From the IMG/VR virus record IMGVR_UViG_3300050190_000082, positions 89,760 through 153,759 of that record: a stretch of 64,000 nt of DNA; one strand, given 5' to 3'. Positions 20,310-46,205 of this stretch are shown piece by piece; position 1 is the first letter of the stretch, and every line of letters begins with the position of its first letter. The translations under genes and the position numbers were made by a program. Below the pieces are notes generated by a model. That model saw nothing but the letters and a program-made list of their open reading frames with translations, did not search any database and had not been told where the DNA came from. This stretch comes from a virus.

Positions 20310-20400
20310 TACTCCCCTTAACCCTTACAATTTCTATATAATACAGAGGGGGTGGCTGGAGTATGCCAATCAGGGTTATAACTCCTGATCTTCCCTCTGT
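20310..20400 (-). promoter_or_regulatory. Structured 5' leader, copy A
   Basis: P1 ACAGAGGG/CCCUCUGU; P2 AUCAGG/CCUGAU with loop AGUUAUAAC; P3 UGGC/GCCA with loop AUACUCCA complementary to downstream GGAGUA. Confidence 0.7.
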
Positions 20401-20488
20401 AAAACTAACAAATTAATCTAATTTCCTGACAAATCCTGTCGAATTATCTCAATTACCACCTTAACATGATAGAATAATTCGACAGGAG

Positions 20489-20707
20489 GTGAAAAGAATG
20501 AATATACCCAAAATAAAACAATGTTATAATTGTGGAAACAATTCATTTGGTAGTTTAGTCTCGAATGGAAATACACCATATACAATTTTAGTTTCTGCTG
20601 AAAAACAAGACGATGGTAGTTTTAAGCCAGATAATACTAAAGTATTAGGTGTTATTCCTATAGTCTGCAACAAATGTGGTTTGGTTCAACTTTTTATTGA
20701 GAAATAG
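20489..20707 (+). CDS. Small zinc-ribbon protein
   Basis: CYNC...CNKCG, AGGAGG RBS. Confidence 0.7.
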   Translation: MKRMNIPKIKQCYNCGNNSFGSLVSNGNTPYTILVSAEKQDDGSFKPDNTKVLGVIPIVCNKCGLVQLFIEK

Positions 20708-20786
20708 TATCCCATTGATATTTACCCCAAATAATTGTAACTTCTAACTGTTCTTCTTGAGTAGTTTCTTTTTTACTCTCTTCCAT
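20694..20786 (-). CDS. Possible 30-aa peptide (MEESKKETTQEEQLEVTIIWGKYQWDTISQ)
   Basis: AAGGAAGTGA RBS before ATG; overlaps the 3' end of convergent gene. Confidence 0.4.
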   Translation of the reverse strand: MEESKKETTQEEQLEVTIIWGKYQWDTISQ

Positions 20787-20809
20787 TTTTTATCACTTCC
20801 TTTCTTCCT

Positions 20810-20844
20810 AGAATGGGCTTGCTATTACAAGTCCATTCTTTTTG
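20810..20844 (+). terminator. Intrinsic terminator
   Basis: AGAATGGGCTTG/CAAGTCCATTCT hairpin followed by T run. Confidence 0.55.
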
Positions 20845-20948
20845 CTCATTTTAATTTAAAGTTATTAAACTCCAACTCTTCATAGTAGACTTTATACATC
20901 CATTCAATATAGAAATCATTCATAGGAAACTGAATTAATTTACCCAAA

Positions 20949-21371
20949 TCAAATCATCTTCTTCATCAAACCATCATACTTTTTGTAAATATCCTTAACC
21001 ATTTTCCTATGTAACCCAATACATCCCTTTTTAACGTCTTTCCATTCAACTGAATAATTGTAGAGATATAACGAAAGAATATCTCTACCCAAATCTAAAT
21101 TTCTCTTTTGAAGTTTAGCTAAATTATCCAAATGCTCTTTTTCACTAAGCTCTACAACTTCCCAATCTAAATTATCATATTTAGATATAGCATTTAATTC
21201 TCGCAATTTCATGACTTTTAGTTCAGCATTTTCCTTTACTAGATTGCCTGAGATTGCAAATTCATCTGATATATAAGTCCATTTCCAATCTGACTTTTCT
21301 TCCATAGAACAGATTTTGATTTTTCCTTCAAATCTCCCATTAGAATCCTTAACACAATAAATCTTTTCCAT
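20949..21371 (-). CDS. Hypothetical protein with own sigma-A promoter
   Basis: 140 aa, GAGGGG RBS. Confidence 0.7.
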   Translation of the reverse strand: MEKIYCVKDSNGRFEGKIKICSMEEKSDWKWTYISDEFAISGNLVKENAELKVMKLRELNAISKYDNLDWEVVELSEKEHLDNLAKLQKRNLDLGRDILSLYLYNYSVEWKDVKKGCIGLHRKMVKDIYKKYDGLMKKMI

Positions 21372-21432
21372 TATGTATTCCCCTCTACTAGTTTATTATG
21401 AAGCTGAATGTTTTTCTCAACCTCATAATACT

Positions 21433-21461
21433 AGTATAAGGGTAAAAGTATTGAATGTCAA
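21433..21461 (-). promoter_or_regulatory. Sigma-A type promoter
   Basis: TTGACA-17-TATACT. Confidence 0.7.
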
Positions 21462-21492
21462 TACTTTAGTTAAACAATTATTTACTTTATTA

Positions 21493-21714
21493 TTATTCTA
21501 AATAAAATATTTCATTAAAATTCATTCCTAATACATATGCTATTTTCAAACCAACATCAGCGCTTGTGTTGAATCTATTTTTAACTAAATTAGACATAGT
21601 TTGTTTGGATACTCCAACCTGCAAAGCAAGCCAGTTCTGTTTTAAACCTCTATCTGATAATATCTGTTCCAATCTATTTTTAACTATTGCATTTTCTATA
21701 TCCACATCAATCAC
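21493..21714 (-). CDS. XRE/Cro-type HTH regulator
   Basis: NRL..IL..RGLKQ.WLA..VGVSKQTMS. Confidence 0.85.
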   Translation of the reverse strand: MIDVDIENAIVKNRLEQILSDRGLKQNWLALQVGVSKQTMSNLVKNRFNTSADVGLKIAYVLGMNFNEIFYLE

Positions 21715-21873
21715 TCCATCCTTTAAATATATTATACCATATGCTATAAGTACATATGTATTAATAAGAAAGGAGAATATTTAACCTTATGATGTAATTA
21801 TATTACTATTTTTAGTGGATGTAAATATAAATTATATATTAGTTATATTATTCTTAGAATTCAAAACCAAACA

Positions 21874-22458
21874 TTAATCAAACAATGGCATATACATTGG
21901 AGTGCAACCTTCGCTATAATCATCCTGCAAAGATTTCTATTCTCCTAATGGCATAAAACCATTTCTCAAATAGAAATTATAAGCATCTGGCACTGAATGT
22001 AACACTATCATTTTAACACCTAATGTCTCCATAGAAATAGTATAAATACCTGCTATAATCGAACCTAAAATTATACAGCTAATTAAAAAATTATCCTCAG
22101 ATACATCATCGTAATATAATAAATCTTGATAAGTTGTATTTACAGCAAACATCTTTATCTCAACAGATGACATACCACGAACAGTGACATTATCATCTGT
22201 ATCAGTTTGTGATGTTTGCTTTTCTTCAAAATACAAAAGAGAAGTAGAAGCTAATGTATAATATGCTATTAAACAATTATTCCTTTTATTAACAACTAAA
22301 TAAGTAACACCGTTTCCACATTCACTGTCCTCAAGAGCATCTTCTTTTACATAACGATCAATTTCATCATCTCCACAATGAAAGTCATTTAATAAATATA
22401 CAGATTCGGAATTTAGAAGGATTGCTTTGCATTCAAACTCATATATTACAGGAAGCAT
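21874..22458 (-). pseudogene. GNAT acetyltransferase (putative toxin) with in-frame TAG at 21937-21939
   Basis: FHCG..ID.Y, IAYYTL, EIKMFAV, FY.RNGF motifs; frame continues past TAG as KSLQDDYSEGCTPMYMPLFD. Confidence 0.7.
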
Positions 22459-22462
22459 AGTT

Positions 22463-22615
22463 TTAATTACCTTTAGTTATCATTTTTGAAAATCTTAAAC
22501 ATTGCTTGAGAAATGATGGAGAAATAACATTTTTCTTACTATCCTCTAAAAATTTCTTTGATTTATTCTTATCAATTATGATCATTGAATTACTAGGTCT
22601 TGCTAATAATGTCAT
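22463..22615 (-). CDS. Small basic protein, putative antitoxin of the GNAT
   Basis: Likely start MTLLARP after AGGGGG RBS; 4 nt from GNAT start. Confidence 0.55.
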   Translation of the reverse strand: MTLLARPSNSMIIIDKNKSKKFLEDSKKNVISPSFLKQCLRFSKMITKGN

Positions 22616-22741
22616 ATCATTTCCCCCTTTGTTTTTAATTTTACGTTTATTCTTGTCCATGTTATTATACCACCTTCCAATTGTTCTTACAATATAGTAT
22701 GCCCATATTAGAACAATTTAGAAGTGGTAGGGAATAAAATT

Positions 22742-22978
22742 TCATTCCTTGGAGTTACTATCTTTCTTTCTTCTGGAAGACATAATTCTAAATATCTCTT
22801 TTTCTTCTTCAGTTTCTACATAGATATCACCATAATATTTATAGACTGCTTCACGCTTTTCTTTATCAAAAATCATATCACTAAATGTAATACCACTTAT
22901 TCCTCTAGTCTTCTTTGTTTGTTCATTAAATTCTATCATATCTTCTTTGGAAAAATTAGATAATTTATTCTTCCTCAT
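22742..22978 (-). CDS. Hypothetical protein
   Basis: 78 aa, overlaps upstream gene, AAGGAG RBS. Confidence 0.55.
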   Translation of the reverse strand: MRKNKLSNFSKEDMIEFNEQTKKTRGISGITFSDMIFDKEKREAVYKYYGDIYVETEEEKEIFRIMSSRRKKDSNSKE

Positions 22979-23468
22979 CCTTTAATTGCTCCTTTAAATC
23001 CCACCATGATTTCTTTGGTATTTTACCTTCACGCATGAGCTTCATCTCAATTAAGGACTGCTCCAAACTTTCTAGTGGCGTACAGTATCTTTCACAGTTT
23101 TCATCTTTATCTTTATTCATCTCATTGAGCAAACTTAAACTAGCTTTTCCTGAATATTTACCCATAATCTGTTTCAATTCTGCTTTCTTTTTAGACGTTA
23201 ATCCAGCACTATCTTTAATGGTATAACCTACATTTAAATCATTAACTTCAACAATATAATCTGCCCAATACTCAGAATCCCAATGATAAATATAAACTGG
23301 GTCATCATTAATCTGTTTTTTTAATTTACTTAGCATCAAATTAATATATTCAGGAGATGCACTATATTTAGTCTCTAAATGTTCTTTGACTTCATTTAAG
23401 AAAATCTTATCATATTCATTATTATCATCCATATTGTATTGACACCACCTTCTACTATATTGTAACAT
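22965..23468 (-). CDS. Hypothetical protein (true start probably slightly downstream)
   Basis: 167 aa ORF; promoter overlaps annotated start. Confidence 0.6.
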   Translation of the reverse strand: MLQYSRRWCQYNMDDNNEYDKIFLNEVKEHLETKYSASPEYINLMLSKLKKQINDDPVYIYHWDSEYWADYIVEVNDLNVGYTIKDSAGLTSKKKAELKQIMGKYSGKASLSLLNEMNKDKDENCERYCTPLESLEQSLIEMKLMREGKIPKKSWWDLKEQLKDEEE

Positions 23469-23487
23469 TTTATGGAGTGTATGTCAA
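23459..23487 (-). promoter_or_regulatory. Sigma-A type promoter
   Basis: TTGACA-17-TACAAT. Confidence 0.7.
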
Positions 23488-23803
23488 TATAATATTATAT
23501 ATAGTTAATGGGCTTGCATTAGATCAAACATCTTCACAATCTAAATTCCTACAAAACGATCAGTACACCCCTTTATATTTAAAAGATATACAAATCTAGG
23601 TCCCGCACCTCAAACCCTTATCAGCACTAGGTTTCATTCAATTTTAAGCCCTAAAAAGAGGCATATAGGTCACACCTAAATACATCTCTATGCACAAATA
23701 CTAACCAGCGTATATATAATATATTATATATAACTTGTAAAATTGAACATTTTCCTATATAATGGTAATATCCAATAGAAAGGAGTGATTAATATTATTA
23801 GAG

Positions 23804-24781
23804 ATGGACCATAAATTAGCGTATCCACAAAATTATAAAAACAAGAAGGAGAGATGTTTAATGACAGAAAAGTATGAACAATTAAAATGGGATATTGTAT
23901 GTACTGGAAATGAGGTAATGATTTCAGACACAACAATTAAAATTCAAGAGATATATGGAGGATTTGGTCAAGGACAGAAAATACTAACAGTACAACAAAT
24001 TGCTTTATTACACGTAGAAGATCCAAGTAACAAAGAAGAGGTTAGAGTTAAGGTAAAAAGAATTAACGAGCTTATTAGTAATAATATAATTCTAGGCAGT
24101 GGTGACAAATACTTCGAATTTGGAATTGATATTATTGACTTAAAATCCGTGGACGTTTCAAACGACCACAAAAAAGTGATTAATAGTTTGATTAAAAGCA
24201 AGGTATATACCCAAAATTCTGTAAATCGTGCTACGAATTTATTTATATTGTCAGAACAAGGGTATTCTCTATTAATCAATCTAATGACAGATACTAAATC
24301 TAAAATTGTTTATAAAATGGTAATTAGGGATTACTTTAAAATTAAAGATCAAATGCTTAGTAGTGAAGACGCTGCTCAGTATATGATGAGACTTTTGGGA
24401 AAACAAGAGAGAAAGAAAACGACTGATATGATTCAGTATTTTGTAGAGCGTGGTGATATTCCACATGATCCTAAAAATATTAAAAGGAACGCTTACGCAA
24501 GGGAAACGAACTTTGTTTATAAATTGCTATTTGGTATGACTGCTAAAGAAATTGAGTCATACTTTGGCTTAACGCTTAAACCCAATGACACTATTAGGAA
24601 TCATATATCACTAGATGATATAGATATTATACGGGATATTGAAGGAAGAATTGGATATATGCAACAAGACAATAAAAGCTACCAAGAAATACACAGTAGA
24701 TTAAAGGAGTTGCACCCGTTGCCTAGAAGACCAATACTTGCAGATAAAAATATAGCATTTATTAGAAGGTTAATTGGATAG
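23804..24781 (+). CDS. ORF6N-type phage antirepressor-like DNA-binding protein
   Basis: I.GGFG.GQK.L...IA.LH...RINELI..N...F..GID.IDLK...FILSEQGY..LI..M; likely start MTEKY. Confidence 0.75.
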   Translation: MDHKLAYPQNYKNKKERCLMTEKYEQLKWDIVCTGNEVMISDTTIKIQEIYGGFGQGQKILTVQQIALLHVEDPSNKEEVRVKVKRINELISNNIILGSGDKYFEFGIDIIDLKSVDVSNDHKKVINSLIKSKVYTQNSVNRATNLFILSEQGYSLLINLMTDTKSKIVYKMVIRDYFKIKDQMLSSEDAAQYMMRLLGKQERKKTTDMIQYFVERGDIPHDPKNIKRNAYARETNFVYKLLFGMTAKEIESYFGLTLKPNDTIRNHISLDDIDIIRDIEGRIGYMQQDNKSYQEIHSRLKELHPLPRRPILADKNIAFIRRLIG

Positions 24782-24811
24782 TAACCAAACGAGATGATAT
24801 CATTCATTTAT

Positions 24812-24845
24812 AGAGACTTCAGTTGGATGAAGTCTCTTTCCTTTA
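24812..24845 (+). terminator. Intrinsic terminator
   Basis: AGAGACTTCA/TGAAGTCTCT hairpin after gene end. Confidence 0.6.
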
Positions 24846-25026
24846 TCACTTTTCATCACAAATTCAACCTTCTAAGCCACGCAAAATTCAATACTACACA
24901 ATCTTACCCTTAATGAATTTGAATTGATTTGAGGGTTGATTTAGTGAATATGTAATTCTGAAAGTCGCATGGGAGTAGGGTTTGAGAGGAGGGGGTTTTT
25001 AGGAAAGTGGTGAGATGATGGTATGA

Positions 25027-26121
25027 TTATTCCTCTTCTTTAACTTCTTCCTCAATAACCTCTCTGTTAGTTTCAATAACTTTCATTTTCTTTAACATTC
25101 CATTCTTTTCTTCGGCAAATGTTCTCAAGTCATAGAAACTGGATGTGGTGCTAATGTCATTATGTTGTCCTATATGTTTACTAACAAATTTTAAATCCAT
25201 TCCACCTGCCAAGTAATGACTTATAGCTGAAGCTTTAAATAAATGCGGATTTATTCTTCGTCCTAAAATATCAGATAAAACATTTGCACACAAATCATCA
25301 GCCCATCCTAAAGATATTTGATGATATTCTCCATTAAATTTCACTGTAAATAGATACTCATGTTCATACCCTCTTTTTTCAACCCATAAGTTTAAGTAAT
25401 ACAAAACTGCTACAGGCACTATATACTCGCATTGCTTTCCATCCTCACTAGGGCCTTTCTCGCGTACTGTATTTGACATTACATATTCTTGACCTTCTTC
25501 TACTGGTTTAGATATAATCTCGGTTTTAAAACCTCTAAGACCACCTCTTCTAGCACCAGTATTAAATGCACACGCTACCCATGCAACTGCAAGGTAATTT
25601 TTATCTTCCATAAGAGTGTCTATTAAAAGTTTATATTCTATTTCTGATATTGCAATTTTATTATAGACATAATTCTTAGGAATTTTAATGTCTGTTTTTG
25701 TGAAGTTATGAAAAGTCTTATACTCATCTACTTCCTCTGATAGAATTCTTTCTGCATATTCACAAATTGTACTTACAGAACTTTTCTTGAATCTTATACC
25801 TGAACTAGACATACCTCTATTAATTAAATAACTCAAATATCTATTAAAATCTCTCTTAGTAATATTAAAAAATGCCTTATCATTTAAACATGTTTTAACC
25901 CACCATGTGAACTGTTTGATTCCACTCCGATACTGATCTTTAGTTTGTTTTGATAAGAGAGGATGCATTTCTTGAAATTCTTTAATGAGTTTTAAATTCT
26001 CTTCATTGCATTCTTCAAACATCTCATTTGTTACTTCTGGCAATTTATCTGGTCTTGCTCTGAGCATATTTTTATTGATTATTGCTTTTGGGATTGAGGT
26101 AGCTTTTTCCGCGTCTGACAT
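25027..26121 (-). CDS. Tyrosine recombinase (SPbeta YomM-like)
   Basis: TGAR, REKG, NPHLFK, QHNDISTT..FY motifs; location inside tail module. Confidence 0.85.
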   Translation of the reverse strand: MSDAEKATSIPKAIINKNMLRARPDKLPEVTNEMFEECNEENLKLIKEFQEMHPLLSKQTKDQYRSGIKQFTWWVKTCLNDKAFFNITKRDFNRYLSYLINRGMSSSGIRFKKSSVSTICEYAERILSEEVDEYKTFHNFTKTDIKIPKNYVYNKIAISEIEYKLLIDTLMEDKNYLAVAWVACAFNTGARRGGLRGFKTEIISKPVEEGQEYVMSNTVREKGPSEDGKQCEYIVPVAVLYYLNLWVEKRGYEHEYLFTVKFNGEYHQISLGWADDLCANVLSDILGRRINPHLFKASAISHYLAGGMDLKFVSKHIGQHNDISTTSSFYDLRTFAEEKNGMLKKMKVIETNREVIEEEVKEEE

Positions 26122-27791
26122 TAATTCACCATCCTTAGTTTATTTACTATATATTTAGCTTTATCTGTTCTTATTTTTGTTGCGGTTATTTTATTGAAAC
26201 CATTTTTACAATTAATCAAATCAGAGAGATATAATAATTCTTGCTCTTGAATAATAAAATTAGTGTCCAAACAATACTCATAAAAACACAACCTTGCATC
26301 AATATAAGTTCCAAAGTGCTTTTTAGTAGCTTCTGCTAAACCAGTAATGTTCCTGTCAAAAGAAGACATCTTTTTATATTCATTATTCTTCAATATGTGA
26401 TTATAAGTTTCAAGCATGTGCTTAAAACCATCAAATATATTATTTTTATTCCATTTATTAACCTGATAAGATGTAAATTTACCGTATTTTTTAGCAAAAT
26501 TATAATAAGTTCCATATCTCTTCAAAGCTTCTAGAAATAATCTGCTTTTGCCATTTTTACTCAACACTCCTTGTGTTGGTAGTATACTTTTGTCGTAACC
26601 ATATCTCATTATTTCTTGTAACAGTTCTATATCGTTAAATTTGTTAGGTGGTATTATAATTTCTTGCTCAATATGCTCACATTTTAAGTCTATAAAGTCT
26701 TTAAAAATATCCTTTAAACTAATCAAAATGTCATTGTAATGTTGTTTGTAAAACGTTTCATAATCTATACTTATCAATCTATAATTATTATCCTTATATA
26801 GTTTCTCCTTTAATTTACGTTTATTATTATAAACAATCCCTCTTTTAGTAACGTCATCATCCTTTGGAAAGCCCCATACCTCTATTTGAATAATTTCTCC
26901 ACTAGATAAATGAATAGCAAAATCACTTCTATAATTTTTGTATTTACCTTCAAATGGGTGATCTTCTCTAGTATAAAACATGTTGTTAGTTATTAAATAC
27001 TGTGCTGTCATGTACTCACAAGATGATCTATTATAAAACCCCCTGTCATCCACCAAGTCATCTTTATCTTCGTAACCCATATCGAATTTAATATTTTTAA
27101 TACCATCAAATTTAAATAATCGTTCATTAGAAATATGTAATATACTTAAAACTTCCTGCTGTTTTGGAAATCTTCCTAGTTCGATACATAATTCTTTTAT
27201 ATCGTGTTTCATATTATCATAATTGTCATAATAAGTATCTTCTCTTTCAAACCTTAGTAGTTTTGTATAGTCGTATCCTAATTCAATGCATAAATCCTTA
27301 ATATTCTCACCATAATCTTGCATGACAGTATGTAGTATAGAGCCTTCTTTATTATTTTGAATACCATGAATAGTTTCATATTTATCTATATATATTTTCA
27401 GTTCTTTCAATCTATTCTCTTTGAATGTCCAATATCCTTTATCATTTCTTGTTAAAACATTATTGTTAAATTTATATTCTATTATTTCTCTTTTTTTTAA
27501 TTGGACACAGTTAATACAACAATATTTTTTAATAATATCATTTACTGTTAAACTTTTAAAATAATCTTTATAAGTTATTTGTTTTTCTCCACCGCAATAA
27601 TCACACTTTACTTCTACTAAATTTTTAGATGATGGTGTTAAGTGTTCCACTTTTATTAGTATTCTCGATCCTCTTTTATATGTCATTTTCTTCGTATATT
27701 TATTATAGAACCTTGGCTTATATCCTAACTCTTCTAATCTGTTAATATTCTCTGGGTTAATACCCATTTCTACCTCTGTACTAATTAACAT
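26121..27791 (-). CDS. Putative free-standing endonuclease (shared N-terminal Zn module, homing-endonuclease-associated repeats, PD-(D/E)XK-like domain)
   Basis: VEVKCDYCG; ELGRFP repeat; RSSCE..SDF..IEVWG..K..LY. Confidence 0.7.
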   Translation of the reverse strand: MLISTEVEMGINPENINRLEELGYKPRFYNKYTKKMTYKRGSRILIKVEHLTPSSKNLVEVKCDYCGGEKQITYKDYFKSLTVNDIIKKYCCINCVQLKKREIIEYKFNNNVLTRNDKGYWTFKENRLKELKIYIDKYETIHGIQNNKEGSILHTVMQDYGENIKDLCIELGYDYTKLLRFEREDTYYDNYDNMKHDIKELCIELGRFPKQQEVLSILHISNERLFKFDGIKNIKFDMGYEDKDDLVDDRGFYNRSSCEYMTAQYLITNNMFYTREDHPFEGKYKNYRSDFAIHLSSGEIIQIEVWGFPKDDDVTKRGIVYNNKRKLKEKLYKDNNYRLISIDYETFYKQHYNDILISLKDIFKDFIDLKCEHIEQEIIIPPNKFNDIELLQEIMRYGYDKSILPTQGVLSKNGKSRLFLEALKRYGTYYNFAKKYGKFTSYQVNKWNKNNIFDGFKHMLETYNHILKNNEYKKMSSFDRNITGLAEATKKHFGTYIDARLCFYEYCLDTNFIIQEQELLYLSDLINCKNGFNKITATKIRTDKAKYIVNKLRMVN

Positions 27792-27800
27792 TTACAAACA

Positions 27801-27881
27801 TCTCCTTTAATATTGTCCTTAAAAAGTAAAGCAGGAAGGCGTTAAGGAAAACGCTTTTCGTGTAGCTATTCACTATCCTGC
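27801..27881 (-). promoter_or_regulatory. Structured 5' leader, copy D
   Basis: P1 GCAGGA/UCCUGC; P2 GUG/CAC with UAGCUA loop; P3 GCGUU/AACGC with loop UUCCUU complementary to two downstream AAGGA, the second being the RBS. Confidence 0.7.
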
Positions 27882-27956
27882 AATTGTGCTAATTTATTGC
27901 ACAACAAAAAAGACACTCTAATGAATGTCTCAAGTTCTAAAATAAATTATTATTTA

Positions 27957-28469: not shown

Positions 28470-28512
28470 GTCATTATAAACGCACCTTTATTATATATAA
28501 TCCACAATTCTA

Positions 28513-29271
28513 TCAAATTAGTTCTTTATTGCTACCACCATCTAGTAACTTTCCATATTTAACATTCAGTTGGTGCTTCACATAATCATATTTGAACCCC
28601 AATGCAGTCAAAGCTGTTACAATTGTTTCTGCTTCATCTACTATTTTTAATTCTTCTTGAGTCAAATAATCTCTTGTTAAATCACTTTTCTTATTTATAT
28701 TTCTAGTTTCTCTTATCTTTTTAGCAGTCATATTAAATAAAATCTTATAAACCATATCTGTATAATTAGAATAAGTAAAATGTTTTGCATTTGGGATGTA
28801 AGTTTGAATGCTAGATGTCATCCTCTTTCTATCTATTTTAGATACTTCTCTTTGTAAATTCCATTCTTCTTTTTTCTTTAAGAATACCTGTGCTAAAACG
28901 TCTTTAGCTTTCATTTGATATTCTACTAATCTCTCAACAACTTCAGATTGTTTTTTAATCATATTAGGAGTAATTGAAATTTTTGCTAAGAATAAAGGTA
29001 AATAATCTAGTTCCATACATAAAGATTGCTGATTACCACCCTTTGTAGGGAGTTGCAAATTTGCAATACCTCTCATTAGTACAGTATCATCTTGAACTTT
29101 TCTAGTAAAACTTTGCCATTGACCTTCTGTCATTCCAATTCCCATATAGATTGGTTTAAGCCCAACATAAGTTTTATTTTGTTTTATATGTTGTACCACT
29201 AATATTTGATCTCCTAGAAATTCGATTTCGGCAACTTTAAAATCACCTAGTTTTACTAATTCATTTTTCAC
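28513..29271 (-). CDS. Phage antirepressor (P22 Ant N-terminal domain)
   Basis: F.GD.I...YVG.K.I..GIG...LPT.GG.Q..LC.ELDYLPLFLAKISIT. Confidence 0.85.
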   Translation of the reverse strand: MKNELVKLGDFKVAEIEFLGDQILVVQHIKQNKTYVGLKPIYMGIGMTEGQWQSFTRKVQDDTVLMRGIANLQLPTKGGNQQSLCMELDYLPLFLAKISITPNMIKKQSEVVERLVEYQMKAKDVLAQVFLKKKEEWNLQREVSKIDRKRMTSSIQTYIPNAKHFTYSNYTDMVYKILFNMTAKKIRETRNINKKSDLTRDYLTQEELKIVDEAETIVTALTALGFKYDYVKHQLNVKYGKLLDGGSNKELI

Positions 29272-29282
29272 AATGAATCTCC

Positions 29283-29345
29283 TTGCTCATTTTATTGTGG
29301 AAGTACGAGCAATACTTATCAGTGCGTTTATAGCAACCTATCCTT
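29283..29345 (-). promoter_or_regulatory. Structured 5' leader, copy E
   Basis: GGAUAG start; hairpin AAGUA/UACUU with loop UUGCUCG complementary to GAGCAA abutting GGAG RBS. Confidence 0.6.
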
Positions 29346-29429
29346 GTATCATCTTTGTGACACAACAAAAAACACCTCTTGAGTAGAAGAGATGTATTTT
29401 AGTCAATCACAAATATTCACTTATATTCC

Positions 29430-29963: not shown

Positions 29964-30062
29964 TTAAAACTGGACTTTGATTGGGATTGTTTAATGTAAA
30001 AGGGATAAAAAAAGAGAAGTGAGTAGGAGTTTTAATTCCTCTCCTTCTCTTTAATAGGATTA

Positions 30063-30407: not shown

Positions 30408-30473
30408 AAATTTACCTCATTATCTTAGGAGAGACAACGGGTAATCTCTCCTAATCGTTTACTAAAATGTTAT

Positions 30474-31193: not shown

Positions 31194-31215
31194 TATTTAC
31201 TTTCCCCCTTATTTT

Positions 31216-34979: not shown

Positions 34980-35009
34980 TAATTTTTAATTCTCCTTATT
35001 AAAGAAATT

Positions 35010-36209
35010 TTATATTGCTAATTTATTATTTAAAATTAGATTATCATATACACCATTTTTATAGTTTTCTTGAAATTCATAAAACTGTTCAGGAGTATTA
35101 CCACCACGACCTTGTACTGAATGAAATAAGATATGTAATTCTTCAGATAAACATACACCCAACCCATATCTATAATGTAATTCTAAACACTTATCTTTTA
35201 TAAGTTGTAAATCTTCAACATTATATTCGCTTAGCGTACTATGTACTGGTAAATTCAACTCACTTAAAGTTTCTTTAACTATAAGTTCAAATCCTTTTAA
35301 ATGATGAACAACATCGAATTTTCCACCTGTCAGGATACACTTATAGTTGCAATTTGCTATTGAATCTTTATTCCATTGTGTAATTATTTTCCGCAACCAA
35401 TGGTTTAATGCTGTTATTCCACCTTTCCATTGATATGCGTTTTTCCCTGATTTACTTTCCAATCCACACTCTGGGCATCCACGATCTCTGGTGAATGAAT
35501 TCGGGGAAATTTTATAATCTGGATGTTTGTTATTTTCTTTTTGACACTTCATTAATATATTTACGTTAGGTGTTCCATAGCTAATTTGCCAAGGATCAAC
35601 AATATTATTTTTATGCCAATATTTGTCTAAGAAACTTTCACCTAGATTATCTATGCCATATTGAGCAAATGAATTACATTTACTGCAAACCATACAACCC
35701 ATTGTTTTACTACTGGTTATAGAATTAATTTTAATTAATTCACTTTCATGTAATCCTTTTGGACATTTGAAGTAATATTTTTTACCACTACCATAGGGAA
35801 TATCAGAAGGTTTACATTTGTTTACTTCATAATCCCATCTATCTAATATCTCTTTTGCATAGCTTACATCAAATAATTCATAGCACTTTTCTTCAAAAGA
35901 TATCCATTTCTCATTGTTATTTTTAGAGCAAAGATTACAATAATAATTTCCGTCTTCTTTTACACAGCTTTGATAATTTTCATATATTATAGATAATTCT
36001 GCGTTACAGGCATCACATTTAACTTTTACATAAACGTGACTACTTTCTGTTAAATCTTTAGGTTTTACTATAATTTTTGTTCCGTTTGGGATAGATATTC
36101 TATTCCATTTATCTTTTCTCTTTGGTATTGTAATTCCTAAATCTTCATAATGTTTAACATTTCTCGGATTTATCGAAACTTCAATATCTTGATCAATAAT
36201 TAATCCCAT
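35010..36209 (-). CDS. Putative HNH-type free-standing endonuclease with Zn ribbons
   Basis: Start MGLIID after GAGGTG; VKVKCDAC; GCPEC..WKGG; C.LTG...VHHL..GVCL...H..FH. Confidence 0.75.
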   Translation of the reverse strand: MGLIIDQDIEVSINPRNVKHYEDLGITIPKRKDKWNRISIPNGTKIIVKPKDLTESSHVYVKVKCDACNAELSIIYENYQSCVKEDGNYYCNLCSKNNNEKWISFEEKCYELFDVSYAKEILDRWDYEVNKCKPSDIPYGSGKKYYFKCPKGLHESELIKINSITSSKTMGCMVCSKCNSFAQYGIDNLGESFLDKYWHKNNIVDPWQISYGTPNVNILMKCQKENNKHPDYKISPNSFTRDRGCPECGLESKSGKNAYQWKGGITALNHWLRKIITQWNKDSIANCNYKCILTGGKFDVVHHLKGFELIVKETLSELNLPVHSTLSEYNVEDLQLIKDKCLELHYRYGLGVCLSEELHILFHSVQGRGGNTPEQFYEFQENYKNGVYDNLILNNKLAI

Positions 36210-36216
36210 ATTACAC

Positions 36217-36316
36217 CTCACTTTATGTAATTGACTTTTCACTTTTTATAAAATAAGGAAAGGAGCAGTAGTGAATCTGCTCCAATAAGAATCATGACTT
36301 CTTATTTTATCCTTAT
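36217..36316 (-). promoter_or_regulatory. Structured 5' leader, copy B
   Basis: P1 AUAAGGA/UCCUUAU; P2 AAUAAGA/UCUUAUU with loop AGUCAUGAU; P3 GGAGCAG/CUGCUCC with loop AUUCACUA complementary to AGUGAA and to AGUGAG at the RBS. Confidence 0.75.
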
Positions 36317-36330
36317 AAAGTTAGCATTAA

Positions 36331-37440: not shown

Positions 37441-37472
37441 TTTATATCATCCTTTCTTATTAAATTTATTTA

Positions 37473-38006: not shown

Positions 38007-38037
38007 AATTTAACATCTTCCTTTCTTTCTTAAAAAA

Positions 38038-39771: not shown

Positions 39772-39814
39772 TTTTTATCACCACCTTAATTAAAAATAAA
39801 CAATGATAATCCAT

Positions 39815-40006
39815 TTAAAAGTTTACTGTATTTGTGAATTTTACATCCTTCAAGGCAGGACTTTCACTAAAGTTAGCATTTAGTTTTTCATTATTTTCAA
39901 ACCAATGAACTCCATTACGTGAGAATAAATAAACAAAACCTAACTGTTGTAATTTAGTTATATCTTCATCTGAAAAACATTTTATATATTTGTCCAATTT
40001 AACCAC
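39815..40006 (-). CDS. Small conserved phage protein
   Basis: 63 aa; I.CF......KL...GF..L pattern. Confidence 0.55.
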   Translation of the reverse strand: MVKLDKYIKCFSDEDITKLQQLGFVYLFSRNGVHWFENNEKLNANFSESPALKDVKFTNTVNF

Positions 40007-40021
40007 CTACTTTTGGATTTA

Positions 40022-40516
40022 TTAACTATTACTTTTGATTACTTCATAGATATTTTTACTGTTAATCCTTGAAAATATCTTAGCACTAAATGATTGTTTG
40101 TCTTTAATTTCTTCGCCAAACCAATTAGGAATCTTAAATAAGTTCATTGTTTCTAAATTAGGAAATTCAACTTCAACAATCGTTTCGCCAGTTTCAAAAT
40201 GATCTACCTCTGCTACCAAATTGTTATCCAAATCAATCAAATACCTATCCTTATTAAGAGGCTTCTTACCTATATAAGAGAAGATGCGATCATACTGGTC
40301 TTCAGTTATTAATCGTTCTATTTCTTCCCTCTGATTATCTGTAAGAAAATATTTAACAGTATGGAAATAGGTATTTTGATTGTCTTGATTAATTTTACGG
40401 ATTCTGACATCAGGATTGAGGTTTGCATAGACTTGTTGGATATTCATTTTAGATTTAATTTTATCTTTTGGAATATTATCAGGATTGACGTGATAACGCT
40501 TTTCTATTTCTATCAT
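40022..40516 (-). CDS. CYTH domain (triphosphate tunnel metalloenzyme) protein
   Basis: EIEKRY, I.Q.Y, VRIR, REEIE, K.RY, EVD.F, VEVEF, P.WFG.EI. Confidence 0.88.
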   Translation of the reverse strand: MIEIEKRYHVNPDNIPKDKIKSKMNIQQVYANLNPDVRIRKINQDNQNTYFHTVKYFLTDNQREEIERLITEDQYDRIFSYIGKKPLNKDRYLIDLDNNLVAEVDHFETGETIVEVEFPNLETMNLFKIPNWFGEEIKDKQSFSAKIFSRINSKNIYEVIKSNS

Positions 40517-42208
40517 TTAGGTTTTATCACCGACTTCGAAGTGTTCCTCCATACAGGAATCCGAACAAAAAGGAGCAAATTCATCGTCAATATTAATAGG
40601 CGAATTACAATTCTTACATACTCTTTGAGAGAATTTCTCATTCTCGTTATACCCTCCACCCCTCGTCTCTGAACCAGCCTCACCTAATTGACCATCAGAT
40701 TTTTTAGGTGCTCCACCTTTGTTATCAGAAGAGGAAGTAGTAAAACTAGACTGCAATGGTATCATCATGCTTCTTGTTTTATTCAGCAAAGAATCAACTA
40801 AAACATTATCCATTTCAAAAGGTTCATAGTCGTAGGATGCGAGGAGTCTTTCCGGCTGTCCCCCGGATTGTGCTAATGATAAAGCAGATTGTTTATCATC
40901 ATCTAAGAAAAATTCACATCTCCTAAGAAAATGAATTGCAAAATTGTATTTACCACCAATTTTAAAAAGTTGTAAATTTATGAATCTCTCAAACTGTGAA
41001 TACATATGTTTTATATAATTATAATCTGCTTGAACACTCAACTTTAATGCTATTGCTGATTTTGTATCCATACCAAAAATTCCACCAGCCACACCTACAG
41101 ATGACCAGAATTGTTGCTCTGATGTTCCAACTATATTATTCATATTTTGAGAATTTGTAAATTTAGCATTATCCATTTCCATAGGTGTGCTGATAACGCC
41201 AGTACCGGGTGGAACTAATGACTGTGCTAAAGCAACATAGTTTATTACTTCTGGTGCTGTCATGGTTGGTTTGCCATTTTCATCAAGTGGAGCTTTTAAA
41301 TACATTATTTGATAAGTTTGAAGTTCTGCACTTAATTTTAGCAAATCTTTATAATCTTGGATTTGAATTCCATCCTTGAATGTTCCTGAAAGGGGAGGAA
41401 CAATCTCAGGTCTGTTATCATCAAACTTAAATACAACTGCCTTGTCGTAAGGTAAGGAACGATATGGATTAGCATTTTTATTTGATTCATTATCTCCCAA
41501 AAACTCTTTGTACCATTCCGAGAACTCAGGAGCAAATCCAGCCATTGCATTTGGAAATTGTTTGAAGAAATTCATAGAGAGAGCAGATGTGAATCCATAA
41601 TCGGTTTTACCATCAATCGTCATATAATCATCAGGAAGAGACATTAGCGAATTTCCTTCTTCACTTTCTCTTAGATAATAAAATTTTCCTCCAGAACGCA
41701 TGACATCTGACATGACATTAGGGCATTGCTCTTTAATTCTAAACTTACGAAGCCATTCATTATTTTTTGCTCTCTGTTTTATGTATAAATCAACTATCTT
41801 TTGATTGCTATTTAATGGGGGTGGGTTTAATGGTATAAGTTCATAGGCAAAGTTTAATAAACTTGCAAAATGAGCAACAGATCGTTGATATTGCATTACA
41901 GACCAATATAAAAAGTCTGAACATGCCATTAATTGTTTCTCAAAATATCTAGGATTATTTAACCAACTAATAATATTTGCTTCAGTTGGTCTTGTGGGAA
42001 GTGTATTCATCCTCTTCATTGCATTATTTGCATAAAGAGGATTATAAAAATTAGAATTCGAACCAGAAGATTTTTGAATAAACTTAGCATAAGTATCCAT
42101 AAATCTTGTAGCAAATTCCTCTGCAAAATTAGCAGAAAGAGGGTTAAGATTTTCATTTATTGGTTTTTGTTTTGAGTTAGGGTTGTTATTTTCTATTGGG
42201 GTATCCAT
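40517..42208 (-). CDS. Portal protein (YonE-like) with C-terminal Zn finger
   Basis: Directly after terminase; C-terminal GGAP motif then CKNC..PFCSDSC. Confidence 0.8.
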   Translation of the reverse strand: MDTPIENNNPNSKQKPINENLNPLSANFAEEFATRFMDTYAKFIQKSSGSNSNFYNPLYANNAMKRMNTLPTRPTEANIISWLNNPRYFEKQLMACSDFLYWSVMQYQRSVAHFASLLNFAYELIPLNPPPLNSNQKIVDLYIKQRAKNNEWLRKFRIKEQCPNVMSDVMRSGGKFYYLRESEEGNSLMSLPDDYMTIDGKTDYGFTSALSMNFFKQFPNAMAGFAPEFSEWYKEFLGDNESNKNANPYRSLPYDKAVVFKFDDNRPEIVPPLSGTFKDGIQIQDYKDLLKLSAELQTYQIMYLKAPLDENGKPTMTAPEVINYVALAQSLVPPGTGVISTPMEMDNAKFTNSQNMNNIVGTSEQQFWSSVGVAGGIFGMDTKSAIALKLSVQADYNYIKHMYSQFERFINLQLFKIGGKYNFAIHFLRRCEFFLDDDKQSALSLAQSGGQPERLLASYDYEPFEMDNVLVDSLLNKTRSMMIPLQSSFTTSSSDNKGGAPKKSDGQLGEAGSETRGGGYNENEKFSQRVCKNCNSPINIDDEFAPFCSDSCMEEHFEVGDKT

Positions 42209-42251
42209 AGGAGACCTCCTTTCGAGATTATTATTTTATAAATTTATTTAA

Positions 42252-44147
42252 TTATCTTTTTCGTCCGAATGGATTATTTCTGTTTGTATTTCTATTGAAG
42301 ATATTATTTCCTTGATTCATGTTTGCTGTTGAGACAAAGTAGGAGGAGAGGTCTGTGCTTTCCTTTTCTTTTAACAAATCTTGCTCTAAAAAAGAAATAA
42401 ACCAACCGCCATAACTGCTACTAGTGTAGCGGTCTTTTCTGGAAGAACCTACAGTATCTAACTTAATATTTCCACCATTCATTGAATATTCAAGATTTAT
42501 TGTTTCATTAATTAACTCCGAAAATTGCCTGTATGGGTGTAAATACCAAACTTTTAAATTTATATCTTGATTACGAGCAAAGTCTTTATTCTTTTTATTT
42601 AAATAATCTTCACCATCATTTTCGTCAACAAGAAAACTACACATTCCTCTTTGTAGTTTATCTCTAAAATTAACAGCAATATCATTATTGTCTCTAGCAC
42701 CTGCTAATATAGGGTATATGATAGGCTTTGCATTAATAGCTAATGTTTTTTCTTTTAACTCTTCTATTAAAGACTTAGATAGAGATTTATGTTCAAATAC
42801 AGTAAGTGCTTCATATTCAATTCCGCGTTCTTCATCTTTAGTAATGACTGCTAGTCTTTCGAAAATTGCAATTCCTGCCTGTTGGAGATCAAGTACAATA
42901 TAATCAGCTTCAAAATCATGATAAATTTGCTTAATTCTGAGGGTTTGTTTCCCAGTATGTTCTCCATTATGGGATTCCATATAAACATATTCTCTTTCAT
43001 ATCCCTTAGCCGTAGGTAATGCTCTTATACAAGTTATAATTGTATTATCATTTTTTTTACCCTTACGAGTTGCAATATCAATTGAAACTATCCTAATTTC
43101 TCCATCTGCTTTTTTTATTTCATTTGGATTTCTCTTCTTATCATAATTATCATTTCTAAAAGGATAAAAAGCCTTCTTTAAATTTCTATTCTTTTGAAAC
43201 ATTTCTAATTTAAAATAAGCGTTACTATTTTCACCCCAAGGTATATTTTCATACTCTTCTAGGAATGTAATTGAGTCCATTGTAGCTCTATCTCTTGCTA
43301 TTGCTTTTACAGTTTTAATATTGTGTTTTATTGCTATTAAGTAATCAAATGCAATAAATCCAGCATCTTTACCTTGCAACATCATTTTTATAGTAGTCAT
43401 TGTTTCTTTATACCACCATAATCCCTTGTGATATGCAGATGATATAAGAACTTGTCGTGGTTCTTCAACTAATATTTTCATATTGGAATATTTAGGGTTC
43501 TTTAGATAAGGTGTTTGCCTAGCATAAGCAAAAGGTTTCACGATACTATCAAATTTTTGCTTATCCATAATCCTAAATTCTTCACCTATAGTGAACGTAC
43601 TTCTTTCTCCACGACCTGACTCCGAGCAGGCAACAATTTTAATTGTTGTGCCATTATGTAGAGTACAATTACAGTTATTTTGTGTATCTGAAAAATCTTT
43701 TACTTCTCTTGCAATATTAGGGTAGTCATCTTTCAACCTTGCCATTTTACCAAAAATAATAGATGCCTGCTTCAAAGTTGTTGCCACGATTACAATTTCA
43801 GAATTTGGGAAAAGCGAGCCACGAGCATAAGCTAGTACAGCGATCAACCATGATTTGGCTGCGGCTCTCGAAGCGATAGTTACAAAATTCTCAGAAATAC
43901 TCATAAAATATATCCATAGAATTTGATACCAATACAACTGAATTCCAAAATAATGTTGGATAAAGCGATGTACATTTCTGCGATAAAAAGTTATCCAGTC
44001 TATTAGGTTATCTTGTTTTTCTTCACTTTTCTCTTTATCTTTAATCATTGTTTTTGGTGCTCTAAATTGATCACTATGACCAGAATATTTGTTAAAATTA
44101 TTTTCAAATTTTTGATATGATCTACCCATTAGAATCACCATCGCCAT
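42252..44147 (-). CDS. Terminase large subunit (YonF-like)
   Basis: ASRAAAKS Walker A, RG.R..EEF Walker B, ISSA, SIDIA..ND, RKDRY nuclease motifs. Confidence 0.92.
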   Translation of the reverse strand: MAMVILMGRSYQKFENNFNKYSGHSDQFRAPKTMIKDKEKSEEKQDNLIDWITFYRRNVHRFIQHYFGIQLYWYQILWIYFMSISENFVTIASRAAAKSWLIAVLAYARGSLFPNSEIVIVATTLKQASIIFGKMARLKDDYPNIAREVKDFSDTQNNCNCTLHNGTTIKIVACSESGRGERSTFTIGEEFRIMDKQKFDSIVKPFAYARQTPYLKNPKYSNMKILVEEPRQVLISSAYHKGLWWYKETMTTIKMMLQGKDAGFIAFDYLIAIKHNIKTVKAIARDRATMDSITFLEEYENIPWGENSNAYFKLEMFQKNRNLKKAFYPFRNDNYDKKRNPNEIKKADGEIRIVSIDIATRKGKKNDNTIITCIRALPTAKGYEREYVYMESHNGEHTGKQTLRIKQIYHDFEADYIVLDLQQAGIAIFERLAVITKDEERGIEYEALTVFEHKSLSKSLIEELKEKTLAINAKPIIYPILAGARDNNDIAVNFRDKLQRGMCSFLVDENDGEDYLNKKNKDFARNQDINLKVWYLHPYRQFSELINETINLEYSMNGGNIKLDTVGSSRKDRYTSSSYGGWFISFLEQDLLKEKESTDLSSYFVSTANMNQGNNIFNRNTNRNNPFGRKR

Positions 44148-45087
44148 TTACAACATCTGCACTATCCAAATCCGTATCTATATTATCATCAACAACAAAA
44201 TTTCTAACTCCAGTTATAAAATTTTCAATAGGTCTAACAATATAATTTTTAATATATGGAAGGAAGCCATCCATGTCTTTATATTTTTCTTGATCTTCAA
44301 ACCATTCTGCTGGTTTGAATTGCTCTATATCTTTAATCCAAGCACCAAAGCAATCATGAGATTTTCCAGCACTTGCAGCATTTGCTTTTGCAGGGTCAAG
44401 GGAGGCTGTTTTTAACAAGTCTTGTAATTCTTTCTGAAGACCACCAACGCCATCACCTTTTTCTCTTGCTTGTCTGATTTCAAGAATTTTGATACAGATT
44501 TCTCTTAATAAAGTTATTTCTGCTTGATTGTCACACTTATGCGTTTGTTTCCATGCTGATAATTCTGCTTCTAAGAATATATAATCGTCAATATTAAAAC
44601 TTTTTCCCCAAAAGATAATTAAATCGTCATCAACCTCTTCATTTTCTATATCCATATTTTCTTGTCTTAAAAAATTACTATCTTTATATCTAAAAGATTC
44701 CATCTTCTCATTATTTTTATTTGTCGAACTAAGTTTTGACTTATAATATCCAAAAACCTTGTCAGCTTTCTTGCCTTTTATCATTAGACTTTCCATATGT
44801 GTCTGAGCACTTTTTAGTGCTTCTTCACTATATCTAATATCTAAATCTTGACATGTCAGTTTTAGAGAAGCTTCTAAACTGTCATATATAGAAAAGTAAT
44901 TATCGAAAATCTCATTACAGTGTGTTTTACATACTGACATTAGACCATTTTTGTCGATCATGGGATTTGTTGAGGTATAGAATAAAGATGCGTTTAGGGT
45001 ATCTTGGCACATCCTACAATAAGTTTTCTCAACAATTGTTGTACTAGGTTCTTTTATTGCTTTCCCTACTCGTGGAATGGGAATCAC
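44122..45087 (-). CDS. Putative terminase small subunit (YonG position)
   Basis: N-terminal Zn finger; FG.WIK.IEQ..PAE; immediately upstream of large terminase. Confidence 0.6.
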   Translation of the reverse strand: MIPIPRVGKAIKEPSTTIVEKTYCRMCQDTLNASLFYTSTNPMIDKNGLMSVCKTHCNEIFDNYFSIYDSLEASLKLTCQDLDIRYSEEALKSAQTHMESLMIKGKKADKVFGYYKSKLSSTNKNNEKMESFRYKDSNFLRQENMDIENEEVDDDLIIFWGKSFNIDDYIFLEAELSAWKQTHKCDNQAEITLLREICIKILEIRQAREKGDGVGGLQKELQDLLKTASLDPAKANAASAGKSHDCFGAWIKDIEQFKPAEWFEDQEKYKDMDGFLPYIKNYIVRPIENFITGVRNFVVDDNIDTDLDSADVVNGDGDSNG

Positions 45088-45121
45088 CCTCTTTTAATTA
45101 AAATAAAGAAGTTAATCTTAT

Positions 45122-46102
45122 TCAAATAACTTCTTTTAAATCTTTTTCTGTTATTCTTCTTAATTTTCCATATACTTTATCATTCATTAACCCACCGATA
45201 TCTATATTGTAATGAGAATGATATTTTTCTTCAGATTTAAACCACTCTAATGCTTTATTATATTCTTGCATCATTACTTCATCCGAAGGAAGGTAGTCCC
45301 TTCCAGTATTAATAAAAATACCTTTCCAACCAAGTTTTTTCATGTAATAATATCTTCTTATTTCTCTATTATTAAATTGTTGCTGTGTCTTTTGCCCCAT
45401 CTTTACACATAAGTCATGACCAGAGCCATTTAGTTCTATGTAAATCTTATTATCAGGAAAAGCAATATCTAAACTTGGAGTATCATTGGAGTAATTCAAG
45501 ATACCACCTAACAATTGATGGACATATATTTGTTGTCTTGAAGTTCTTACAGTTCCATTTCTATAAAATGTTTCTGCCTTCTTTATCTTTATATCTTCAT
45601 TCTGAGATATATTATCTACACCATATTTATCTTGTATTATTTGCTTATATGTGATTTTAAAATGTTCAGAGGCAAAAACATTATCTACCCCATATATCTC
45701 TAAGTTGGTTTGCTTTTGTTTCTCTATGAACTCTGGTTGATTAATATGATATTCAAACCCAAAATTAATCATATTACACTCCGCAGTTTTCTTTGATATA
45801 CATTTTTTATTTGAACAACAATCTTTATGTATAATAGATTTTAAATTATTCTTTATATAATCTGCGACATTTTTAGGATAAATATCTCTGCAACCTTCTT
45901 CTTGATAATCGCATTTAACTGTAACTTTTGCTTCACTATACTCTGGCATATCCTCAATTTTGACAAATAGTGGTTGTGAATAATCTACAACGGGTTTGCC
46001 TTTTTTACCAATTACCATTGGTATTTTATAACCCTTTTCTCTATAATATAGTATCTTCTTATTACCTCTTAATCCAACTTCGACTTCTTTTGTTAACAAC
46101 AT
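45122..46102 (-). CDS. Putative free-standing endonuclease (shared N-terminal module, YGV.N repeats, Vsr/DUF559-like domain)
   Basis: Start MLLTKEV after GAGGG; VTVKCDY; LDIA...IYIELNGSGH...GWK. Confidence 0.75.
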   Translation of the reverse strand: MLLTKEVEVGLRGNKKILYYREKGYKIPMVIGKKGKPVVDYSQPLFVKIEDMPEYSEAKVTVKCDYQEEGCRDIYPKNVADYIKNNLKSIIHKDCCSNKKCISKKTAECNMINFGFEYHINQPEFIEKQKQTNLEIYGVDNVFASEHFKITYKQIIQDKYGVDNISQNEDIKIKKAETFYRNGTVRTSRQQIYVHQLLGGILNYSNDTPSLDIAFPDNKIYIELNGSGHDLCVKMGQKTQQQFNNREIRRYYYMKKLGWKGIFINTGRDYLPSDEVMMQEYNKALEWFKSEEKYHSHYNIDIGGLMNDKVYGKLRRITEKDLKEVI

Positions 46103-46117
46103 TACCGATTCCCTCTT

Positions 46118-46205
46118 TCTGCACATTTATTTATCTGCACTTAAAAATATAAAGAAGATAGGTGTGCAGAGACTTGGCAATTACCCCAAATCTAAACCTA
46201 TCTTC
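46118..46205 (-). promoter_or_regulatory. Structured 5' leader, copy C
   Basis: P1 GAAGAUAGGU/ACCUAUCUUC; P2 AGAUUUGG/CCAAGUCU with loop GGUAAUUG; CUGCAC complementary to two downstream GUGCAG. Confidence 0.7.

Follow-up and report, generated by a model that had tools for sequence, protein, structure and literature searches.

Five leader RNAs, named c1 to c5 in the order of their coordinates, were analysed in a window of 64,000 nucleotides (nt), namely, bases 89760-153759 of the 153,759-bp viral record IMGVR_UViG_3300050190_000082 from IMG/VR. Judged from sequence, they seem on balance to be cis-acting 5′ leaders of optional gene cassettes, most of which resemble homing endonuclease genes (HEGs), and they may control the initiation of translation by a pseudoknot with two competing partner sites. 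An earlier note on this DNA had described them as an undescribed structured leader that recurs in front of five unrelated inserted genes. The observation is real and mostly as described there. It is not wholly undescribed, as it comprises one catalogued motif, int-alpA, together with uncatalogued variants.

According to the list of open reading frames (ORFs), the minus strand carries nearly all genes at 17-49 kb. Read accordingly as reverse complement, each of the five elements stands directly 5′ of an ORF. All complementary word pairs named in the earlier note were found in place, on the minus strand and 5′ of minus-strand ORFs. Folds were computed with RNAfold and z-scores were determined for each copy. 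As folded leaders, c1, c2, c4 and c5 held up (Table 1); c3 is unstable and probably no more than a degenerate member. The fold of c2 is only modestly stable (z -2.3), and its helices P1, P2 and P3 are those of the Rfam alignment. The words GGAUAG and CUGAUAAG at the junctions of c3 are common to the homologous leaders L025, L006 and L017. A single architecture for all copies was too strong a claim, since c1, c2 and c4 are three-way junctions and c5 consists of two helices and a junction strand. G-U pairs are present in P1 and P2 (c1, c5 and the c5 relative L060), so that the fold belongs to the sense-strand RNA. As far as computed folds can tell, the leaders are real structured RNA elements on that strand.

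The single strand displayed by each fold is complementary to sites shortly before the start codon. Leaders with two sites have their full match at -27 to -43 (termed S1 hereafter) and a second match, either full or of 4-7 nt, at -11 to -22, where it overlaps or adjoins the Shine-Dalgarno sequence (SD; S2). In c1, the full 6-nt complement is found at -30 and its 4-nt core (GGAG) at -15. The earlier remark that the partner is often doubled, with an upstream decoy and a copy at the ribosome-binding site (RBS), proved correct, the second partner at the RBS being the rule among the leaders. Single-site leaders (c3, the HEG leader of L003, L007, L015, L027 and L030) carry their site at -13 to -23, abutting the SD. 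In none of c1-c5 is the SD inside a local hairpin; the SD region lies outside the folded domain and pairs only long-range.

A further single-site leader exists in the same genome, outside the window, at ~70970-71090 (minus strand) before a 386-aa ORF. It shows P1 UUGG/CCAA, a P2 apex UUCGAA and a long P3 loop UUUCCUUAG facing UAAGGAAGGA at the RBS. Leaders of this type also head the extra HEG of L003 and genes in L007, L015, L027, L030, L037 and L038.

c5 is the copy with the strongest evidence. Its relatives were searched with a pattern placed on the unstructured 3′ part only (UUUUUAAG, a gap and AGAAAGARGGAAU), which yielded six loci on six viral contigs, with L060 sharing the contig of the earlier sampled L005. 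The alignment of c5 with these loci (A7, n = 7) contains three word types, UCUGCAC, UCUGUGC and UCUACAC. The junction strand was paired with S1 in 49 out of 49 cells and with S2 in 49 out of 49 cells, and all pseudoknot pairs were Watson-Crick. Three of the seven pairs were compensatory, which was reached in none of 500 shuffles, and slid controls were 12-69% paired. P1 and P2 vary in sequence among the types, and RNA folding gave the same fold for seven out of seven leaders.

Column-wise covariation was examined in the c5 family. The MAFFT alignment of 13 three-way-junction leaders (A4) was structurally inconsistent, and alignment A5 of “type B” leaders, with a one-column shift in P3, was used for reading only. 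For 32 non-redundant leaders of homologous nuclease genes, the unpaired segments of the most stable local domain were compared with the last 60 nt before the start codon. Local folding was used here instead of whole-leader MFE (minimum free energy) domains, which were misassigned in most copies. The segments matched their own RBS-proximal tail over at least 6 nt in 41% and the tails of other leaders in 11% (permutation p = 5e-5). The claim that the partner covaries with the loop every time thus stands for the c5 family (seven leaders) and for the 32 nuclease leaders, and for c1 and c4 it is based on homologues with other words. Nine homologues of the c4 gene were aligned (A3) and 50 viral loci were obtained, nearly all of which carry leaders of the same design with different words. 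In L004, the c4 leader is 95% identical and the protein 83%; the leader changes are found only in two loops, outside UUCACU. L055 harbours a homologue of the c1 gene (61% identical) behind a different leader, whose hairpin loop CUCCAAC has two GUUGGAG partners, one of them inside the SD. In two canonical int-alpA copies of another phage, the SD follows the loop (UCCUUA/AAGGAG and UCCCU/AAGGGAG). Covariation in the homologues and the permutation across loci exceed chance.

Most leaders have a self-complementary hexamer at the apex of P2 (UUGCAA, UAGCUA, UCAUGA, UUCGAA or AUCGAU). In the window, the apices are UAGCUA in c2 (27860-27873), UCAUGA in c4 (36285-36305) and GUUAUAAC in c1 (20368-20390). 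A GC-containing 6-nt palindrome at a hairpin apex was counted in 23 of 31 leaders, whereas 500 shuffles gave 10.6 on average and 18 at most. Between L061, L062 and L064 (UAGCUA) and their sister L063 (UCAUGA), one palindrome is replaced by another, and in L004 the palindrome is broken. Such a palindrome may serve dimerisation through kissing loops or act at the DNA level.

The statement that no named RNA family could be assigned does not hold for c2, which is the int-alpA RNA of Rfam (RF02996; cmscan 37.1 bits, gathering 35.8) and has the consensus junctions of this family, i.e. UAG after P1, CGAAAAG between P2 and P3 and CCUG before the 3′ strand of P1. A second int-alpA copy with 54 bits lies outside the window (G000:C1:76112-76180, minus strand) and shows that the motif also occurs in front of genes other than nucleases, since it heads a 652-aa ORF that weakly matches DEAD-box helicases. 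c1, c3, c4 and c5 were not matched by RF02996 at E ≤ 10, neither in the search of the window nor in a single-family search of the whole genome. In the 32 viral records with homologous leaders, the model matched twice, both times elsewhere.

Like int-alpA, the leaders are phage-borne and found beside integrase-type genes, c2 preceding an ORF coupled to a tyrosine recombinase. The P1-closed three-way junction of int-alpA is present in c1, c2 and c4 and nominally in c3, and c5 lacks P3. The consensus P3 loop CCUU complements AAGG in the 3′ tail, which corresponds to UCCUUA/UAAGGA in c2 and to other words in the other copies. The junctions differ from the consensus in c3 (UAG and CUGAUAAG), c4 (UAAA and U) and c1 (AA and none); UAAA after P1 is common to c4, L008 and L035. 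Unlike in int-alpA, the pairing words are reprogrammed (UACUCC, UUCACU, UCUGCAC and others). Moreover, Rfam lists the family as “Gene; sRNA” (small RNA) without a function, whereas the partner sites described here tie the leader to the SD of the next gene. As the Rfam model misses c1, c3, c4 and c5 as well as the leaders of the relatives, these were classed as uncatalogued variants of the int-alpA kind. By their architecture and short shared words, the leaders look like a wide family of which the Rfam model captures one branch; the relatedness is based on these two features because no structurally sound alignment of the three-way junctions (A4) was obtained. int-alpA reportedly belongs to the candidate RNAs published by Weinberg et al. 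in 2017 (NAR 45:10811). The name does not appear in the main text of PMC5737381. No paper linking int-alpA or a similar leader to homing endonucleases was found among the papers searched.

Leader and gene were gained or lost as one unit, as follows from presence and absence in both directions between the window and its relative L003, whose portal is 89% identical. L003 can be aligned with the window through the end of a 74-aa gene and its terminator. Directly behind follows the RBS of an ORF that is the homologue, by position, of the 321-aa gene in the window and is unrelated to the HEG. L003 is devoid of the ~1.1-kb cassette of c5 plus HEG and of the GIY-YIG cassette (window 46286-46786). Conversely, L003 contains a 452-aa HEG (phrog_9084) with a 121-nt structured leader (L003 12436-13949) between a 60-aa gene and a YonD-like gene, where the window has a 43-nt spacer (39772-39814). 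The description of the genes as inserted can therefore be kept at least for the c5/HEG and GIY-YIG cassettes, which are optional relative to L003. The c4 cassette is present in both the window and L004. In agreement with the earlier note, the leader does not precede core virion genes; portal, terminase and other core genes have short spacers only. The hairpin plus UUUGUUGU that had been noted before three copies (c2, c3 and c5) is present as well, and it represents the intrinsic terminators of the upstream genes. In L061-L064, c5-type leaders follow the same terminator as c5 does. In L008 and L035, transcripts from strong promoters (TTGACA-17-TATAAT) would start at the foot of P1. A recurrent tail, UUUUUGUUGUG, ends the intrinsic terminators of this phage group (window, L003, L005, L055 and L061-L065), and leader cassettes tend to sit immediately 3′ of terminators. 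The variable word was also considered as a guide to the empty insertion site, but no match was visible by eye against L003.

In the proposed mechanism, the compact fold closed by P1 displays one single strand of 6-8 nt. This strand complements S2, on or abutting the SD of its own gene, and in most copies equally complements S1, 15-25 nt upstream. Pairing with S2 would form a long-range pseudoknot that hinders 30S binding, while pairing with S1 would be a competing state in which the RBS is free. The leader could thereby keep translation low and tunable when a gene arrives in the genome together with everything it needs. Selection keeps the displayed strand matched to a site at the SD or next to it, and the simplest reading of this is that a long-range pseudoknot, in competition with S1 pairing, controls access of the 30S subunit. 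From the sequences we infer that the pairing would act on translation, that it would act as a brake and that its outcome would depend on the balance of S1 and S2. Switch function, toxicity of the genes and a “late operon” setting, all part of the earlier proposal, are presumptive. A bolder version, which is rather unlikely, would make int-alpA and its relatives one modular class of protein-free, “addressable” switches, in which the strand toggles between decoy and SD, the word is reprogrammable and kissing of P2 apices between two leader RNAs makes expression depend on cassette transcripts, by their copy number or concentration.

Several results weigh against translational control by such a pseudoknot. 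In a genome this rich in AT, the generic criterion that a loop matches the tail hardly rises above background. Applied to the genome, a loose descriptor (three-way junction plus 5-6-nt complement) gave 275 clusters without and 60 clusters with energy and GC filters; these were mostly intragenic, and c1 was missed for a technical reason. A 6-nt match was reached in 9 of 66 intergenic regions, mostly by words of A and U only. In c3, the z-score is +1.49, P1 comprises only 3 bp and the claimed fold was not recovered; for c1, there is no close homologue for testing its helices. No sigma-70-like promoter above chance was detected beside c1-c5, and c2, c3 and c5 come directly after terminators. As S1 is nearer and made first, the default may leave the RBS free, and the leader may enhance expression. 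The led genes are not all nucleases, the int-alpA copy outside the window preceding a DEAD-like ATPase gene and c3 an Ant-type gene. Conversely, an HNH endonuclease gene in the head module (window 48489-49448, minus strand) has a 36-nt spacer without a structured leader, so the device is not used by every nuclease gene of the phage. The cluster count, the intergenic matches and the missing stable fold of c3, along with the blindness of RF02996 to c1, c3 and c4 even at E ≤ 10, might suggest that everything besides the int-alpA copy and c5 consists of unrelated hairpins with chance complementarity in an AT-rich genome. This is very unlikely in view of z-scores of about -4.2 and -4.7 for c1 and c4, complementary words that contain G and C, the conservation of c4 in L004 with changes in loops only, the same-design leaders with other words before homologues of the c4 and c1 genes and the permutation result across loci.

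An unlikely alternative is that the element raises expression as a 5′ stabiliser or enhancer, with the fold and an SD-like site guarding the mRNA from 5′ exonuclease or holding a standby ribosome. 5′ stem-loops and STAB-SD elements stabilise mRNAs in Bacillus, the promoters of L008 and L035 start the transcript at the foot of P1, and S1 is SD-like (UAAGGA) in int-alpA-type copies. However, S1 is not SD-like in c4 (AGUGAA), c5 (GUGCAGA), L005 and L061-L064, and a pure stabiliser has no need for the strand complementary to the SD-proximal site that selection keeps. It is quite unlikely that P1 and a U-rich tract end transcription to give a short trans-acting or attenuated RNA of ~60-70 nt, the gene being transcribed by read-through only. 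This would agree with the Rfam type “Gene; sRNA”, with a U-rich stretch directly after P1 in every copy and with the P3 hairpin plus UUUCCUUAUU of c4, which was flagged as terminator-like. Yet the genome has 70% A+T, the U tracts are broken by A with no simple GC-rich hairpin before them, and the covarying S1 and S2 lie 3′ of the U tract at fixed places relative to the adjacent SD, neither of which a terminated sRNA needs. The words, one inverted and two direct, could instead be DNA operators for a cassette-encoded protein that represses its own transcription as in I-TevI. Homing endonucleases bind specific DNA sequences through dedicated modules, autorepression of transcription is on record for I-TevI in the reference list of PMC3014915, the P2 apices are DNA palindromes and the exclusively Watson-Crick pseudoknot pairs in A7 are also expected from DNA repeats. 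Operators are nonetheless improbable, because a stable fold always presents the inverted word in a loop or junction, its helices covary and include G-U pairs that operators do not need, the second site follows the SD and not a promoter, and the same design precedes unrelated proteins (900-aa ORF, Ant-type protein and DEAD-like ATPase).

With regard to known systems, the translational two-site pseudoknot can be compared with pseudoknot operators. In E. coli, a pseudoknot at the RBS serves as translational operator in the rpsO/S15 system. A pseudoknot in the 5′ leader of T4 gene 32 likewise lies beside the SD and controls initiation. The gene 32 and rpsO operators are single-gene sites that are bound by the gene's own product, whereas the words of the leaders vary from cassette to cassette and imply no protein partner. 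RBS-sequestering structures limit translation of I-TevI, Aeh1 mobE and probably segB in T4-type phages (PMC3014915). These resemble the leaders as structured RNA in the translation initiation region of a nuclease gene, thought to hold translation low inside operons. The T4-type hairpins are, however, local, contain the SD or AUG and often come with an internal late promoter, whereas the leaders pair an SD-proximal site long-range with a separate folded domain, usually have a second competing site and recur with the same design across unrelated genes. The free-standing HEG cassettes of other phages (T4 seg/mob, I-HmuI-like HNH and T5orf172/GIY-YIG) are likewise optional genes between backbone genes with HEG-type domains, here phrog_12131, DUF4379 and T5orf172. 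The present cassettes differ from them in bringing along a recognisable structured leader, and their endonuclease and homing activities are putative.

A local SD-sequestering hairpin also occurs in the window at 21386-21461 (minus strand), where the SD GAGGGG of a 140-aa ORF (20949-21371) is located in the 3′ arm. From a strong sigma-70-like promoter (TTGACA-17-TATACT, 11/12), transcripts would start inside the 5′ arm of the 21386-21436 hairpin. An arrangement of this kind is known from T4 gene e and I-TevI, where RNA that reads through is silent and RNA from the nearby promoter gets translated. The 140-aa product matched no family.

For years, int-alpA has stood in Rfam with no function assigned. 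Since the design lies 5′ of optional cassettes and its displayed strand covaries with the RBS region of the gene that follows, this orphan motif now receives a testable hypothesis, i.e. cis control of translation by a two-site pseudoknot. The catalogued model seems to cover a small part of a much wider leader family. The results further suggest how selfish nuclease genes may enter essential phage operons harmlessly, namely, by bringing their own expression governor along. If this is true, the leader would be a useful marker of mobile cassettes when phage genomes are searched and, as a regulatory part, would be compact and reprogrammable.

Table 1. Leaders, partner sites, led genes and neighbouring features in the window (positions refer to the 64,000-nt stretch)
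Feature	Position	Strand	Details
c1, three-way junction	20343-20400	-	MFE fold = claimed fold, -24.7 kcal/mol, z -4.21
c1, helices	20393-20400 with 20343-20350; 20384-20390 with 20368-20374	-	P1; P2
c1, P3 hairpin	20354-20367	-	loop AUACUCCA; UACUCC at 20358-20363
c1, partners	20310-20315; 20296-20300	-	GGAGUA; SD GGAGG; start codon 20285
c2, int-alpA RNA (RF02996)	27816-27883	-	cmscan, full model 1-71
c2, parts	27876-27881 with 27831-27836; 27843-27848	-	P1; P3 loop UCCUUA
c2, partners	27816-27821; 27802-27807	-	UAAGGA; AAGGA within SD AAGGAG; start codon 27791
c3, weak/degenerate copy	29298-29346	-	hairpin 29303-29315, loop UUGCUCG; UUGCUC at 29307-29312
c3, single partner	29279-29288	-	GAGCAA 29283-29288 overlaps SD AAGGAG; GTG start 29271
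c4, three-way junction	36254-36315	-	MFE fold = claimed fold, -20.8 kcal/mol, z -4.69
c4, parts	36285-36305; 36262-36283	-	P2, loop GUCAUGA; P3, loop AUUCACUA; P1 UAAGGA/UCCUUA
c4, displayed word	36270-36275	-	UUCACU
c4, partners	36238-36243; 36216-36222	-	AGUGAA; AGUGAGG = SD
c5, two-helix leader	46153-46206	-	MFE fold = claimed fold, -23.0 kcal/mol, z -4.13
c5, parts	46197-46206 with 46153-46162; 46170-46193; 46164-46170	-	P1; P2; unpaired 7-nt junction strand UCUGCAC
c5, partners	46134-46140; 46118-46124	-	S1 GUGCAGA; S2 GUGCAGA, adjoining SD AGAGGG 46111-46116
Intrinsic terminator upstream of c2	27910-27931	-	tail UUUUGUUGUG
Intrinsic terminator upstream of c3	29372-29395	-	
Backbone terminator upstream of c5	46244-46263	-	same hairpin at the empty site of L003 and in L061-L064
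900-aa ORF led by c1	17583-20285	-	no Pfam family; weak endonuclease VII-like motif (E 8e-6)
556-aa ORF led by c2	within 25027-27791	-	N-terminal domain phrog_5104, common to the 399-aa product
252-aa Ant/KilAC-type ORF led by c3	28513-29271	-	P22_AR_N
399-aa homing-endonuclease-like ORF led by c4	35010-36209	-	DUF4379 treble-clef zinc fingers
326-aa (326/334) homing endonuclease led by c5	45122-46102	-	phrog_12131, DUF7487
GIY-YIG/T5orf172 cassette	46286-46786	-	ORF 46290-46595 (101 aa, Pfam); own hairpin 46638-46671, z -6.43
Portal	40517-42208		head/packaging module
Large terminase	42252-44147		head/packaging module
Protease	47873-48460		head/packaging module

The led genes had been taken for five unrelated nuclease or antirepressor genes. 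This applies to the 326/334-aa and 399-aa ORFs, which are clearly HEG-like, and to the 252-aa Ant-type ORF. It has to be restricted for the 556-aa and 399-aa ORFs, which share an N-terminal domain, and for the 900-aa ORF with its weak motif. A recognised homing endonuclease domain is clear in the 326/334-aa ORF and in the 101-aa T5orf172 ORF. Homologues of the 399-aa ORF carry NUMOD3 or DUF723. The true start of this c4 gene is ATG 36209 and not GTG 36242, as the public gene call of a relative (P0001) also comprises 399 aa; for the c5 gene, the sequence makes ATG 46102 the most likely start. PHROGs and Pfam gave only weak matches for the 652-aa, 900-aa and 140-aa products. No relatives of the 556-aa and 410-aa ORFs were found in single-protein scans, and the scan with the Ant-type ORF gave one distant locus. 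In front of the GIY-YIG gene, where a simpler version of the leader had been suspected, the sequence forms a simple, strong hairpin with a U run behind it, which is a different design.

The 556-aa ORF overlaps at its end by 1 nt with a 364-aa tyrosine-recombinase-like ORF (25027-26121, minus strand), which shares the c2 leader. A gene of this type thus occurs in a 154-kb phage whose gene set looks lytic, and it fits the “int” in int-alpA.

The backbone around the leaders is the head and packaging module. G+C is ~30% in the window. No isolated phage has a portal more than 28% identical to the one encoded here, phages of Bacillota being the nearest, and a megablast search with 12 kb retrieved no isolated phage. 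The SPbeta-type families YonD, YonB and YomX are among the gene calls of one relative. The phage is a large, uncultured one of a low-GC host.

Rfam further detected a group I intron at 12681-12950 of the window (minus strand, 69.6 bits). The same 3′ core sequence (AGAAGAACCAUUUCCGCUAUUC...) occurs a few hundred bases away, upstream of 12926-13123, which suggests two putative related introns in or near the region of a 1226-aa gene. Two adjacent tRNA genes are located at 50947-51096 (minus strand), and L003 also contains two at the homologous place.

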